Shown: positions 31,044-34,139, counted from the stretch's first letter. The stretch: DNA of 64,000 nt from Elusimicrobiota bacterium (GCA_018816525.1 JAHIVV010000054.1:9047-73046); one strand, 5' to 3'. Notes: generated from the sequence alone by a model not told the origin. Numbers and translations: made by a program.

Positions 31044-31078
31044 CACCCAATATCCTTCCAAGCGGATAGCATTGGGTG
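31044..31078 (+). promoter_or_regulatory. Conserved nested hairpin element, copy 1, about 19 nt upstream of the cupin gene start
   Basis: Outer stem CACCCAAT/ATTGGGTG, inner stem ATCC/GGAT, loop TTCCAAGC, 3' bulge AGC. See the findings. Confidence 0.5.
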
Positions 31079-31096
31079 TTTAAAAGGATAAAAAAA

Positions 31097-31426
31097 ATGA
31101 AAATTGTTAATAAACCATGGGGAAAAGAAATCTGGATTGCTTATACAAAAAAATATTTGGGAAAAATCCTGATAATTAAAAAAGGCCATAGATTAAGCAG
31201 GCAATATCACAAAATTAAAGATGAAACACTTTACTGTGATACCGGAAGATTTGAAATGGAGCTTGGAAGAAAAACATTTACCGTCAAACCGGGGCAAGCT
31301 ATCAGAGTAAAACCTAACACAATCCACCGCATGTTCGCAAAGTATTCCGATGTCAGAATAATTGAAACTTCAACGTCACATCCAAGAGATAGAGTAAGAA
31401 TGGAAGACGATTATGCAAGAAAATAA
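31097..31426 (+). CDS. Cupin domain protein (mannose-6-phosphate isomerase type II C-terminal domain-like)
   Basis: KPWGKEIWIA...GHRLSRQYHKIKDETLY...HPRDRVRMEDDYAR matches ManC C-terminal cupin. The track's GTG start (31076) lies inside the hairpin. The ATG at 31097 has AAGGA 8 nt upstream. Confidence 0.65.
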   Translation: MKIVNKPWGKEIWIAYTKKYLGKILIIKKGHRLSRQYHKIKDETLYCDTGRFEMELGRKTFTVKPGQAIRVKPNTIHRMFAKYSDVRIIETSTSHPRDRVRMEDDYARK

Positions 31427-32849
31427 CATCAAATTCGGTACTGAAGGCTGGAGAGGAATTATTTCCAAAGACTTTACTTTTGAAAATGTCGCAAAAGTAA
31501 GCCAGTCAATTTCCGATTACCTGCGAAGCACCCAAAAACCATCCAATTCGCAATCCGGGCAAAAAATTGCAATTGGTTATGACAACCGGTTTCTTTCAGA
31601 AAAATTTGCCAATTGCTGCGCTCAAGTGTTTTTACAAAACGGTTATGAAGTGATAATATCGGATTCATCTGTCACAACACCCAATCTTTGTTTCATTACA
31701 AAATCGAAAGAAGCGCAAATCGGCATCATGATAACCGCAAGCCATAATCCCGCTATATTTAACGGGCTTAAAGCAAAAGCGCAATATGGCGGGCCTGTAC
31801 CGGAATGGCTTAATAAGGAAATAGAAAAAAATATACCGCAAAGATTTGTCGAGTCTAAAATAGATAATGAGGGTCTAGCGCCTGTCGAATTTAAAGACGA
31901 CTATATTAAATACATCAAAATGTCAGTTGACTTCAGTAAAATAGGGAAAATAAAACAAAATATTGTCTTTGATTGCATGCATGGCCCGGCTTACCGCTAT
32001 ATCGACGGTTTATTTGGCAAGGATAATAAAAAAATAATCAAGTTAAGAGATACAAGGGACGTGCTGTTCGGCGGGTTTAATCCTGAACCGATTGAAAAAT
32101 ATATGTCTTTGACAAAATCGGAGGTAAAAAAACATAAAGCCGCGGCAGGTATTGTAACGGACGGCGACGGTGACCGCGTAGGAGTTGTGGCTGACGGCGG
32201 TATTTACCTGCCTCCTCATACGGTCTTTCCGCTGCTTTTATATTATCAGGCAAAATATAAAAATCAAAAACCAAAAGTCGCGCAAACAATTTCATTAGGC
32301 TATTTATCTGAGCGTATTGCAAAAAAATATAGTCTTGAATTTGAAGAAACACCCGTAGGCTTTAAGTATATAACTGAGAAAATACTTAAAGAGGGGAATA
32401 TCTTCGGCGGTGAGGAATCCTGCGGTTATGCGCTTCCAGGAGAACTGCCGGACAGGGATGGAATACTGTCGGGCCTTACCGTTTTGGAAATGATTGGTTC
32501 GTCAGGAAAAAAACTGTCTGAGCTTGTAAAAGAAATGCAAAAAGAATTCGGAAAATCGTCTTTCATGCGGTATGATTTTCGCCTACCTGAAATAATTTTT
32601 GACAAAAGTTGCTTTGTAAATATTATCAAGGGCTTTATTTCTGAGAAAATAAATGGTAAGACGTTGAAGTCTGTAAAAACCTTTGATGGGATAAAGATAG
32701 TACTTGAAGATGATTCCTGGCTTTTAATGCGGCCCTCAGGAACAGAACCACTGCTTCGGGTGTATTCAGAAACACCGTCACAGAAAACGACACAGCAACT
32801 AATTGATTACGGCAAAAAAATAACCATGAACTATTTTAAAAACAAATAA
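31413..32849 (+). CDS. Phosphomannomutase / phosphoglucomutase (alpha-D-phosphohexomutase family)
   Basis: Active-site TASHNP. Mg-binding GIVTDGDGDRVG. Sugar-binding GGEESCG. Confidence 0.8.
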   Translation: MQENNIKFGTEGWRGIISKDFTFENVAKVSQSISDYLRSTQKPSNSQSGQKIAIGYDNRFLSEKFANCCAQVFLQNGYEVIISDSSVTTPNLCFITKSKEAQIGIMITASHNPAIFNGLKAKAQYGGPVPEWLNKEIEKNIPQRFVESKIDNEGLAPVEFKDDYIKYIKMSVDFSKIGKIKQNIVFDCMHGPAYRYIDGLFGKDNKKIIKLRDTRDVLFGGFNPEPIEKYMSLTKSEVKKHKAAAGIVTDGDGDRVGVVADGGIYLPPHTVFPLLLYYQAKYKNQKPKVAQTISLGYLSERIAKKYSLEFEETPVGFKYITEKILKEGNIFGGEESCGYALPGELPDRDGILSGLTVLEMIGSSGKKLSELVKEMQKEFGKSSFMRYDFRLPEIIFDKSCFVNIIKGFISEKINGKTLKSVKTFDGIKIVLEDDSWLLMRPSGTEPLLRVYSETPSQKTTQQLIDYGKKITMNYFKNK

Positions 32850-32857
32850 AAGAGAGA

Positions 32858-32892
32858 TACCCCATGCTCTTCCAAGCGAGCAGAATGGGGTA
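32858..32892 (+). promoter_or_regulatory. Conserved nested hairpin element, copy 2, immediately upstream of the metK SD
   Basis: Outer stem TACCCCAT/ATGGGGTA, inner stem GCTC/GAGC, loop TTCCAAGC, 3' bulge AGA. The inner stem co-varies relative to copy 1. Confidence 0.5.
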
Positions 32893-32909
32893 CTCAAGAG
32901 GAGAAAGAG

Positions 32910-34079
32910 ATGAGTTTTGTTAGAAAAGATTTCTTTTTTACATCTGAATCAGTAGGCGCCGGCCATCCGGACAAAGTTTGCGACAAAGTTTCTGATGCAG
33001 TATTGGATGATGTTTTAAGGCAGGATCCAAAAGGGCGGGTAGCCTGTGAAACATTTATAACCTTGGGCCTGATCATTGTCGGGGGCGAAATAACCACAAA
33101 AGCTTATGTGGATGTCCCAAGCATTGTAAAAAGAGTAGTCAAAGATATCGGATATAATGATCCAAAATATGGTTTTGATTACAAGAACTGCGGGATATTA
33201 AACGGAATTCACTCTCAATCACCGGACATTTCCCAGGGAGTTGACACAGGCGGCGCCGGAGACCAGGGAATAATGATTGGTTATGCAAATAATCAGACTG
33301 AAGAACTAATGCCTATGCCGATTACTTTAGCCCATAAACTTATCAAAAAAACTAATGAAGCAAGGACTTCCGGCCTTCTTTCTTATTTAGGCCCTGATTG
33401 CAAATCCCAGGTGACTGTTGAATATGTCAACGGCAAACCGGCAAGAGTTGACGCTGTAGTCATTGCATGCCAGCACACCGAAGATGTTTTAGATAAAACC
33501 GGAAAACACATGTCTGAAAATGCAAAAAAACAAATGAAAAAGGAAATAATTGACCCCATAATCGGCAAAATGGCTGATTCAAAAACAAAATATTTTATTA
33601 ACGCAACAGGAAAATTTGTTATCGGCGGGCCTGCATCAGATACAGGTATGACCGGGAGAAAAATTATTGTCGATACTTATGGCGGTTGGGCTCAGCACGG
33701 CGGCGGAGCATTTTCAGGGAAAGACCCGACCAAAGTTGACAGGTCAGCAACTTATATGGCAAGGCATATTGCAAAAAATATTGTCGCAGCGAAGCTTGCT
33801 GATGAATGCCTGGTAGAACTTTCATATTGTATCGGTGTTGCCGACCCTATTTCAATCATGATTGATACCCATAACACAGGTGAAATCAGCGATGAAAGGC
33901 TTGAGAAAATCGTCAGGGACGTGTTCCCACTAACACCCAGGGGTATAATTGATTACCTCAAACTTCGCAGGCCCATATACTGCAAAACAGCTGCCGGCGG
34001 GCATTTTGGCAGAAAAGAAGCTGACTTTCTGTGGGAAAAAACCAACAAAGTTGATGAATTAAGAAAAGCAGCGAAATAA
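32910..34079 (+). CDS. metK: S-adenosylmethionine synthetase
   Basis: [31 protein letters not shown] and the [10 protein letters not shown]-loop, the canonical bacterial MetK motifs. 389 aa. Confidence 0.9.
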
Positions 34080-34102
34080 ATTTAAAAAATAATTAGGAGA
34101 AA

Positions 34103-34139
34103 ATACCCATTACCATTCCTAACGGGTAGCAATGGGTAT
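34103..34139 (+). promoter_or_regulatory. Conserved nested hairpin element, copy 3, immediately upstream of the ahcY SD
   Basis: Outer stem ATACCCATT/AATGGGTAT (9 bp), inner stem ACC/GGT, loop ATTCCTAACG, 3' bulge AGC. Confidence 0.45.

Follow-up and report, generated by a model that had tools for sequence, protein, structure and literature searches.

The locus considered here, part of a 64,000-nucleotide stretch of DNA from an Elusimicrobiota bacterium (GCA_018816525.1 JAHIVV010000054.1:9047-73046; hereafter the window), raises the question of why three similar hairpins stand just upstream of a cupin/PMI gene, metK and ahcY. A sequence-only reading had proposed that they are paralogous copies of a new cis-regulatory RNA motif, possibly one responding to SAM. 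The copies are:

31044-31078, + strand: hairpin copy 1, CACCCAATATCCTTCCAAGCGGATAGCATTGGGTG, between the genes for NTP-transferase and cupin/PMI
32858-32892, + strand: hairpin copy 2, TACCCCATGCTCTTCCAAGCGAGCAGAATGGGGTA, between PGM/PMM and metK
34104-34138, + strand: hairpin copy 3, TACCCATTACCATTCCTAACGGGTAGCAATGGGTA, between metK and ahcY

The gene calls are confirmed by Pfam (NTP-transferase, cupin/PMI, PGM/PMM, MetK and AhcY). The nested hairpins are present as that reading had described them, each with an outer stem of 8 pairs, an inner stem of 4 (3 in copy 3), a loop of 8 nt and, on the 3' side, a bulge of 3 nt, AGC or AGA; only the span of copy 3 differs, the earlier 34103-34139 including one extra A-T pair. 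All are 35 nt long and align without gaps. Copies 1 and 2 share the loop TTCCAAGC on inner stems ATCC/GGAT (bulge AGC) and GCTC/GAGC (bulge AGA), respectively, copy 3 has the inner stem ACC/GGT, loop region ATTCCTAACG and bulge AGC, and the base changes in the stems are compensated among the three. RNA folding yields the nested hairpin for copy 1 (-16.2 kcal/mol, z -2.1) and copy 2 (-21.6 kcal/mol, z -3.9), and a less convincing fold for copy 3 (-13.5 kcal/mol, z -1.0). A 19-base pattern common to the copies matches three times in the window, against none expected after shuffling, and a covariance model run over the whole window with filters off found only these copies, at 58.2, 58.2 and 50.1 bits. 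The same scan gave no match to a probable decayed copy, whose 5' arm is gone:

24097-24129, + strand: probable decayed copy; 3' half of the hairpin and SD kept (AAGCGGATGGCGGTGGGTG TTAAAGGGGATTAA, then ATG)

The sequences bordering the three copies, some of which are compared with the closest relative, L056, and the end of the transcription unit are as follows:

31036-31043, + strand: left flank of copy 1, AAGGAATG after the stop codon TAA; an SD-like relic, of which TAAAAGGAAT recurs in the right flank as TTAAAAGGAT
31079-31096, + strand: right flank of copy 1, TTTAAAAGGATAAAAAAA; GG of the working SD at +8/+9 (31086-31087); cupin ATG at 31097
32850-32857, + strand: left flank of copy 2, AAGAGAGA; imperfectly repeats AAGAGGAGA of the right flank
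32893-32909, + strand: right flank of copy 2, CTCAAGAGGAGAAAGAG; SD with GG at +8/+9; metK ATG at 32910
34080-34103, + strand: left flank of copy 3, ATTTAAAAAATAATTAGGAGAAAA; SD-like relic TTAGGAGAAAA; aligns with the native spacer at the empty site of L056
34139-34152, + strand: right flank of copy 3, TTAGGGGGGAAATA; SD with GG at +8/+9; ahcY ATG at 34153
35436-35476, + strand: canonical intrinsic terminator, 13-bp stem and T-run; ends the transcription unit after ahcY

In all three window copies the GG of the SD lies 8-9 nt past the hairpin. The start of ahcY had been called within the 3' arm of copy 3, so that the hairpin misleads gene callers. The earlier view that the hairpins are not terminators is upheld, since no copy is followed on its 3' side by a T-run and the operon has a genuine terminator after ahcY.

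Do such hairpins occur elsewhere? With a search pattern fitted to the three window copies, in which TTCC, CG and AG were fixed, the genome scan placed eight of nine matches in a single MAG, Elusimicrobia RIFOXYB2_FULL_48_7, and the metagenome scan found 44 loci. Combined, the scans yield 51 distinct copies from at least 3-4 genomes; in one MAG, at least 12 lie in the parts examined, stretches of 1-15 kb around matches. Viral contigs contained no match to the hairpin pattern, and there is thus no sign of a phage vector. The consensus of the family is YACCCMWT-AYNC-UUCCWARC-GNRU-AGM-AWKGGGUR. The hairpins are therefore a dispersed, lineage-restricted 35-nt palindromic repeat family of groundwater Elusimicrobia, and membership in it bears out the paralogy of the window copies. 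As had been suspected, the hairpin is absent from Rfam, which gave no riboswitch match in 30950-34250, either at the gathering score or at E <= 10, and none for the hairpin in family members at other loci, while all that the searches of the window and its relatives returned were tRNAs, one fluoride riboswitch and sub-threshold noise. A full-text literature search found nothing on this 35-nt element, and a repeat this tightly tied to translation starts appears to be undescribed.

The presence of metK and ahcY downstream of two of the three window copies, together with the complementarity of the loop UUCC to the GGAA of many downstream SDs, had suggested a small SAM- or SAH-responsive riboswitch with a loop-to-SD pseudoknot, as in SAM-II, SAM-V or SAM/SAH. 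The hairpin resembles these classes in being small and adjoining the SD, but metK and ahcY follow it in this window only, no covariance model of a riboswitch matches it, and its downstream genes are not restricted. The palindromic family is dispersed upstream of many genes unrelated to SAM or to one another, encoding ribosomal proteins (S11, S20, L20, L29), chaperones, amino-acid biosynthesis and motility functions, with GatC, glutamate dehydrogenase (GDH), IscU, DnaJ, DapA, PheA, MotA and ScpB among them. Neither is the element conserved in relatives. L056 has a MetK 87% identical to that of the window and the same gene order, but its spacers at the three junctions, 14, 21 and 28 nt long, lack the hairpin. 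In L060 the genes overlap at the corresponding junctions, and all four relatives that keep the order cupin-PMM-metK-ahcY (L056, L058, L059 and L060) lack both a match to model R1 and an Rfam riboswitch, so that neither the element nor a SAM riboswitch precedes metK or ahcY at the orthologous junctions examined.

Nor do the data lend support to the pseudoknot. Loop and SD do not covary, since the loop is invariant while 12 of 51 copies carry T at SD position +10 and show no compensating change. The geometry also looks unfavourable: UUCC is at the 5' side of the loop, and the linker, at 7 nt, would need to bridge about 16 stacked base pairs (12 + 4 bp). The 5' inner strand, which had been described as anti-SD-like, varies freely among copies and is thus not a family feature. 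Sensing of SAM or SAH by the window hairpins is not supported by these comparisons, and we regard a riboswitch as scarcely credible. Of the proposed cis-regulatory RNA motif, what stands is a real, structured, SD-linked element that has no Rfam match; its regulation of the SAM cycle does not.

That the pairing itself is under selection, as proposed from the three window copies, is supported by covariation across the family. Of the pair cells in 40 distinct copies, 97.7% are paired, and both sides vary at 9 of the 12 pairs; none of 500 shuffles reached the observed values, and slid controls were 28-50% paired. Even in divergent copies the outer stems are fully compensated (CATCGCAT/ATGCGATG, CACTTCAT/ATGAAGTA and TATCACAT/ATGTGATA). 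Watson-Crick pairs make up 501 of 516, with three G-U and ten A-C pairs, six of the latter at the terminal pair; these non-Watson-Crick pairs are too few for the asymmetry between G-U and A-C to decide the strand of action. While the stems covary, the loop and bulge are nearly invariant across the family, in part because the search pattern fixed TTCC, CG and AG. A tRNA-like minihelix or T-loop was considered and rejected by eye, as the bulge falls in the 3' strand and no T-loop pattern is seen in the 8-nt loop.

Could the palindrome act as DNA, either as an operator for a dimeric transcription factor or as an intrinsic terminator lacking the U-run? The outer arms do form an 8-bp inverted repeat, G-U pairs are rare, and many copies stand close behind a stop codon. 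However, an operator in duplex DNA would not be expected to show compensated inner-stem changes or an asymmetric bulge, and both versions are at odds with the strict sense orientation and the SD register. Moreover, the operon runs on past each window copy to the T-run terminator used after ahcY, and some copies lie inside ribosomal-protein operons. We consider action at the DNA level very improbable.

The placement of the copies is remarkably uniform. The downstream start was callable for 43 of 49 motif matches, and in these the gene is on the same strand as the hairpin, at a distance of 13 to 21 nt, mostly 13-19 nt, with a mode of 14 nt (18/43). The link to the SD claimed for the window holds throughout the family: in 49-50 of 51 copies GG occupies +8/+9, with 7 nt between the hairpin's 3' end and this GG of the SD; this register is tighter than the SD-to-AUG spacing. 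On the left side, GG occurs at -7/-6 in 30-38 of 51 copies. Such a rigid register, together with a near-invariant loop and bulge on covarying stems, is what might be expected of a host translational operator, at which a trans-acting RNA-binding protein would dock 7 nt from the SD and co-regulate many housekeeping genes; by analogy with the iron-responsive element (IRE), it could read the conserved loop CUUCCWARCG and the AG bulge on variable stems. Against it, the downstream genes have no common functional theme, no candidate binding protein is known, and the search pattern itself contributes to the invariance of the loop. Together with the comparisons between genomes given below, this makes an operator of the host an unlikely explanation.

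Most copies are intercistronic, and among the 39 copies that have an ORF upstream, about 29 are no farther than 30 nt from its stop codon. In L003, two copies start exactly 7 nt past TTGxxx-17-TATAAT promoter-like sites, at the predicted 5' end of the transcript; the other promoter-proximal copies are 15-40 nt from the -10 box, and a rule placing the hairpin always at the 5' end was rejected, since it fits two of six promoter-like cases. A conserved upstream mini-ORF across the hairpin was likewise rejected, the ATG-like triplets of the left flank being in differing frames and often ATA or ATT. These positions, and the stability of the hairpins (-16 to -22 kcal/mol), bring to mind an mRNA processing or stability element, which may mark an endonuclease site in the AU-rich UUAA linker or cap the downstream 5' or upstream 3' end, giving the segments of a polycistronic mRNA differing half-lives. 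REP/BIME elements are known to affect mRNA stability (PMC3184786). Yet the protection of ends requires neither a fixed 7-nt SD register nor a conserved loop, and the remaining promoter-proximal copies are not at the predicted transcript end. As the main explanation this role seems doubtful, but it is compatible with the one we prefer and not exclusive of it.

How, then, did the copies come to be where they are? Each of the three filled sites of the window has an empty counterpart in L056, the one close relative available for this comparison; there, precise loss is indistinguishable from gain in the lineage of the window, because the two have diverged to a third-position identity of 0.50-0.56. 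The right flank of copy 2 aligns with the entire spacer of the empty site (CAAGAAAGGAGAAAAAAG). Elsewhere, L053 has a single copy where L030 carries a tandem pair. Left and right flanks of the same copy are more alike than flanks across copies (6.10 versus 5.29, permutation p = 1e-4); in L011 they are a perfect 14-nt direct repeat, and other flanks are imperfect direct repeats of the RBS. Tandem units measure 49-50 nt with spacers of 14-15 nt, and only direct tandems were seen. Identical 35-mers precede differing genes in differing genomes, and two or more copies are clustered on adjacent genes at 13 of 36 loci. The flanks do not look like a plain target-site duplication (TSD), since the left one has a conserved AAT(A/G) next to the hairpin (31 of 51 copies have T at -2) that is not mirrored on the right. 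In the fragments available of each genome, no transposase or autonomous parent element was found, and a search for a parent through orphan termini was uninformative, the 8-mer being too common.

Taken together, these data point to a miniature palindromic element, duplicative and mobile-like, whose insertion into an RBS region duplicates that region, an account we hold to be probable, with some reserve. A transposition-like, duplicative insertion into the RBS region would duplicate about 14 nt, so that an SD-like relic remains 5' of the hairpin, with an intact RBS 3' of it. The copies are sense-oriented and stand within a transcribed leader or an intercistronic spacer. Those ahead of the cupin gene, metK and ahcY would stem from local spread within a single operon. 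The hairpin may be kept because an insert that folds on itself leaves the SD unoccluded: the accessibility predicted for the SD is 0.604 when the hairpin is present, 0.595 when it is deleted (not significant) and 0.532 when a shuffled 35-mer takes its place (p = 4.6e-5). It may also be a substrate of whatever machinery copies it. In the transcript it would be a passive stable stem-loop, which could insulate the RBS and perhaps shield mRNA ends. A near-invariant loop and bulge are not required of a passive hairpin, which counts against this account.

The absence of the hairpin at three orthologous sites of the closest relative, and the signs of copy-and-paste spread (identical variants at unrelated genes, tandems and direct repeats in the flanks), argue against the host operator discussed above. 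In its favour, the hairpin is 35/35 and 33/35 identical in two orthologous pairs, in which silent third positions are 63-69% identical and the left flank 7/14, indicating purifying selection or gene conversion. Such conservation agrees with a host function no less well than with a selfish element. The two could be joined in a domesticated operator, in which one RNA-binding protein, or the platform of the 30S subunit itself, would read the loop and AG bulge 7 nt from the SD and boost or co-regulate initiation at dozens of housekeeping genes, ribosomal-protein cistrons among them, in a clade of Elusimicrobia, as an IRE-like regulon spread by an SD-targeting, SD-duplicating mobile element; we think this combination rather improbable.

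Several known repeats share features with the family. Like the RAYT-associated REP/BIME elements, the copies are imperfect palindromes of about 35 nt, numerous in a genome, extragenic yet transcribed, lineage-specific and compensated in their stems. REPs, however, have a conserved GTAG/GTGG at the 5' end, are not known to make target duplications (Nunvar 2010; Bertels & Rainey 2011), occur in both orientations, often as inverted pairs, and are typically found 3' of genes or between convergent genes. The Elusimicrobia element begins with YACCC, has GTAG only internally (positions 23-26, in copies with G23), is strictly sense-oriented at a fixed SD register, and is found in direct tandems only and with direct-repeat flanks. 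Its outer stem as terminal inverted repeats, imperfect flanking direct repeats, orthologous presence or absence, sequence subfamilies and local clustering recall miniature inverted-repeat transposable elements (MITEs), from which it differs in its length of 35 bp, far short of the usual ~50-500 bp, in an unusually long duplication of ~14 bp, and in the lack of a parent IS in the stretches around matches, a search of low power. Both this duplication and this length are unusual for known MITEs and speak against a mobile element. Also unlike MITEs, the whole element is a hairpin, since the inner stem covaries too.

Mycobacterial MIRUs, tandem repeats in intercistronic spacers that follow the orientation of the operon (Supply 1997), measure 46-101 bp, encode small ORFs whose translation is coupled to that of the flanking genes, and are not hairpins. 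The Elusimicrobia copies likewise lie in operon spacers, follow the direction of transcription and vary in tandem number, but no conserved reading frame crosses the hairpin. Close parallels in placement are Neisseria REP2 and Borrelia IR, dispersed sense-oriented repeats directly upstream of ORFs that have internal stem-loops and carry the RBS (Delihas 2011, PMC3184786). The Elusimicrobia hairpin is similarly sense-oriented upstream of ORFs, with an internal stem-loop and an anchored SD. REP2 and IR are much longer and also bring a promoter and ATG (PMC3184786), whereas the unit described here is 35 nt (49-50 nt with the SD spacer), is mostly intercistronic, has a variable distance to the ATG and is flanked by RBS duplications. 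Unlike in REP2, promoter-like sites lie outside the repeat at a variable distance.

These results remove a false lead, as the hairpins are most unlikely to be a new SAM riboswitch, and describe a family that is unusual for a bacterial repeat in its strict sense orientation, fixed 7-nt SD register, duplicated RBS flanks and presence in ribosomal-protein operons. If mobile, it would be an element that targets RBSs while preserving them, a point of interest for the tolerance of compact operons to insertions. Should it prove functional, it would amount to a modular cassette of hairpin and RBS that clearly recalls synthetic RBS insulators.

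Three nested hairpins of 35 nt precede adjacent genes in the window:

31044-31078, hairpin copy 1, upstream of the cupin/PMI gene
32858-32892, hairpin copy 2, upstream of metK
34104-34138, hairpin copy 3, upstream of ahcY

They align without gaps, each with an outer stem of 8 bp, a loop of 8 nt and a bulge of 3 nt in the 3' strand; the inner stem has 4 bp in copies 1 and 2 and 3 bp in copy 3. RNA folding recovered the shared layout for copies 1 and 2 (-16.2 and -21.6 kcal/mol) and gave a weaker fold for copy 3 (-13.5 kcal/mol). The 19-base pattern common to the three copies, ACCCNNTNNNNTTCCNANCGNNNAGNANNGGGT, has three real matches in the window against none expected by chance, and a covariance model of the family, run over the whole 64 kb with filters off, detected only these three. 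The sequence-only reading was right about the three hairpins. Rfam gave no match at any of them, even at E <= 10. The neighbouring genes encode, by Pfam, an NTP-transferase, the cupin/PMI protein, PGM/PMM, MetK and AhcY, and the best matches of MetK assign the organism of the window to the Elusimicrobia. The stretch 35436-35505, downstream of ahcY, holds a terminator (a perfect 13-bp stem and T-run, 35436-35476) and, directly after it, TTGACA and TATAAT hexamers about 17 nt apart (by eye), upstream of an ORF for a 1735-aa beta-helix protein. The hairpin-bearing genes therefore form the end of a long transcription unit for polysaccharide synthesis. In the ORF listing and in a public gene call, ahcY begins with the ATG at 34132, inside the 3' arm of copy 3 (431 aa); judging by relatives and by the position of the Shine-Dalgarno sequence (SD), its true start is 34153 (424 aa).

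A scan of one genome per species gave nine matches, eight of them on separate contigs of the MAG Elusimicrobia bacterium RIFOXYB2_FULL_48_7; the inner stem of the ninth, in Desulfobacula, does not pair, and that match looks fortuitous. Metagenomes added 44 loci, drawn from a small number of groundwater samples. After removal of duplicates there were 51 distinct copies, in host genomes of roughly 37-50% GC, and the same 35-mer was found before different genes in different genomes. At least two copies occur at 13 of 36 loci, usually on adjacent genes, with three in a row in the window. The MAG RIFOXYB2_FULL_48_7 also carries a fluoride riboswitch (RF01734, 56.9 bits) at 5941-6016 of locus L008.

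Over a set of 40 distinct 35-mers, pairing holds in 97.7% of pair cells, with changes on both sides in 9 of the 12 pairs; none of 500 shuffles matched the observed values, and pairing falls to 28-50% when the partner columns are slid. Watson-Crick pairs account for 501 of 516, and G-U for only three. Divergent copies found by the model have wholly different, compensated outer stems (CATCGCAT/ATGCGATG, CACTTCAT/ATGAAGTA and TATCACAT/ATGTGATA) and keep the loop. The loop C-UUCCWARC-G and the bulge AG are nearly invariant, partly owing to the way in which copies were found; no standard outer stem with a different loop was found in 387 kb. In one family member (L008 393-468, the same as L043 7067-7142), a 41-nt insertion stands in place of the loop; it includes GCTTGGA, which is the normal loop TCCAAGC in reverse complement, and could fold extra hairpins.

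The genes downstream of the hairpins have no common theme.

Genes found downstream of family members
Translation and folding: GatC; ribosomal proteins S11, S20, L20 and L29; RNA methyltransferase-domain protein; DnaJ; Jag/R3H protein
Amino-acid metabolism: glutamate dehydrogenase; glutamate synthase; DapA; acetolactate synthase small subunit; chorismate mutase/prephenate dehydratase; aminotransferase
Other metabolism and redox: IscU; phosphoribosyltransferase; transaldolase; GH57 enzyme; flavodoxin
Membrane, motility and chromosome: MotA/ExbB; SPFH protein; T2SS-F protein; HlyD-family protein; ScpB

It had been suggested that the hairpins might form a SAM-responsive element in which the loop pairs with the SD. 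The paired, compensated stems and the linkage to the SD hold, but regulation by SAM is refuted by this diversity of genes, by the Rfam models and by the relatives, in which the model found no family copy in 66 kb of syntenic sequence, the metK and ahcY junctions included, and in which no SAM riboswitch precedes metK. The pseudoknot gains nothing either, as the loop does not vary, whereas 12 of the 51 copies have T at SD position +10 from the hairpin. Moreover, UUCC lies on the 5' side of the loop, and a 7-nt linker would probably need to span about 16 stacked pairs.

The search pattern held no flank information, so that placement was not biased by the search. For 43 of 49 motif matches, a start codon was found downstream on the strand of the hairpin, mostly at 13-19 nt with a mode of 14 nt (18/43). 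The SD GG stands exactly at +8/+9 in 49-50 of the 51 distinct copies, a register tighter than the SD-to-AUG spacing, and a second SD-like GG lies on the 5' side, at -7/-6, in 30-38 of them. About 29 of the 39 copies with an upstream ORF are within 30 nt of its stop codon and are thus intercistronic, including in ribosomal-protein operons. At 24097-24129 of the window, between ORFs 22788-24098 and 24130-25365, there is a probable decayed copy in which the 3' half of the hairpin and the SD remain (AAGCGGATGGCGGTGGGTG TTAAAGGGGATTAA-ATG), with GG at +8/+9 and ATG at +15; CTTCCAA lies 18 nt further 5', within the final codons of the upstream ORF.

Direct tandems with SD-like spacers of 14-15 nt, hence a repeating unit of 49-50 nt, occur at three loci, for example before rpsK (S11):

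L009, 3098-3181
L030, 1165-1249
L050, about 1190-1274

The left flank of a single copy resembles the tandem spacer. Within one copy, the two flanks are more alike than flanks compared across copies (6.10 versus 5.29, permutation p = 1e-4). The flanks at locus L011 hold a perfect 14-nt direct repeat, TTAAAGAGGTAATA, and all three window copies have left/right repeats (TAAAAGGAAT / TTAAAAGGAT, AAGAGAGA / AAGAGGAGA and TTAGGAGAAAA / TTAGGGGGGAAA).

In the closest relative (locus L056, whose protein matches Elusimicrobia RIFOXYA2_FULL_39_19), MetK is 87% identical and gene order is shared over more than 20 kb. Its spacers at the three junctions are 14, 21 and 28 nt long, each with an ordinary ribosome-binding site (RBS) and no hairpin. 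Third-position identity to the window is 0.50-0.56, a divergence so strong that a gain by the window's lineage cannot be told from a precise loss by the relative. The genes overlap at these junctions in another relative, and two others have unrelated repeats there: three tandem units of about 43 nt and an inserted PDDEXK_3 gene before metK (L058 6665-6860), and a tandem pair of palindromic units upstream of the cupin gene (L059 2089-2243). These operon junctions seem to be permissive landing sites. In other genomes, two orthologous pairs have both retained the hairpin, with 35/35 and 33/35 identical positions against an identity of only 63-69% at silent positions; the left flank is 7/14 identical in one pair. 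Thus, the hairpin itself is under constraint or is homogenised, whereas the SD-like flank on its left drifts. Copy number also differs between related genomes, as the L053 ortholog of the L030 tandem site has a single copy.

Taken together, these data show a family of structured repeats that lie in sense orientation and are locked to the RBS. The family includes sequence subfamilies and tandem units, its presence at a site differs between genomes, and RBS-like direct repeats flank the copies on either side. As to its mechanism and function, we infer a spread by duplicative insertion into RBS regions. The element would insert some 5 nt downstream of the SD GG and duplicate about 14 nt; the working RBS would stay with the downstream gene and an SD relic would be left upstream. 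In folding calculations, SD-to-AUG accessibility was 0.604 with the natural hairpin and 0.595 with the hairpin deleted, whereas a shuffled 35-mer lowered it to 0.532 (p = 4.6e-5), which predicts that a self-folding insert either has no effect on translation or serves as an insulator. Protection of the mRNA end is possible but not general: two copies at locus L003 (743-777, minus strand, and 3430-3464, plus strand) start exactly 7 nt after good promoter-like sites (TTGAAT-17-TATAAT and TTGTTA-17-TATAAT), which would place the hairpin at the very 5' end of the transcript, but other copies lack this register. Two features do not fit a purely passive element, namely the invariance of loop and bulge and the conservation of the hairpin between orthologous sites. 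They keep in play an operator for an RNA-binding protein, or a hairpin that the copying machinery recognises.

A full-text search found no description of the family in the literature. Its nearest published analogues are Neisseria REP2 and Borrelia IR, repeats directly upstream of ORFs that carry stem-loops and an RBS; however, these are much longer and include the promoter and ATG (Delihas 2011, PMC3184786). In its size and palindromic form the family is like REPs, but it lacks their 5' GTAG, mixed orientations and inverted pairs. It resembles MITEs in its terminal inverted repeats, the repeats in its flanks and its insertion polymorphism, although it is only 35 bp long and its proposed duplication is unusually long. 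We classify the hairpin family with the small dispersed palindromic repeats, and its RBS-locked behaviour is unusual and apparently undescribed.
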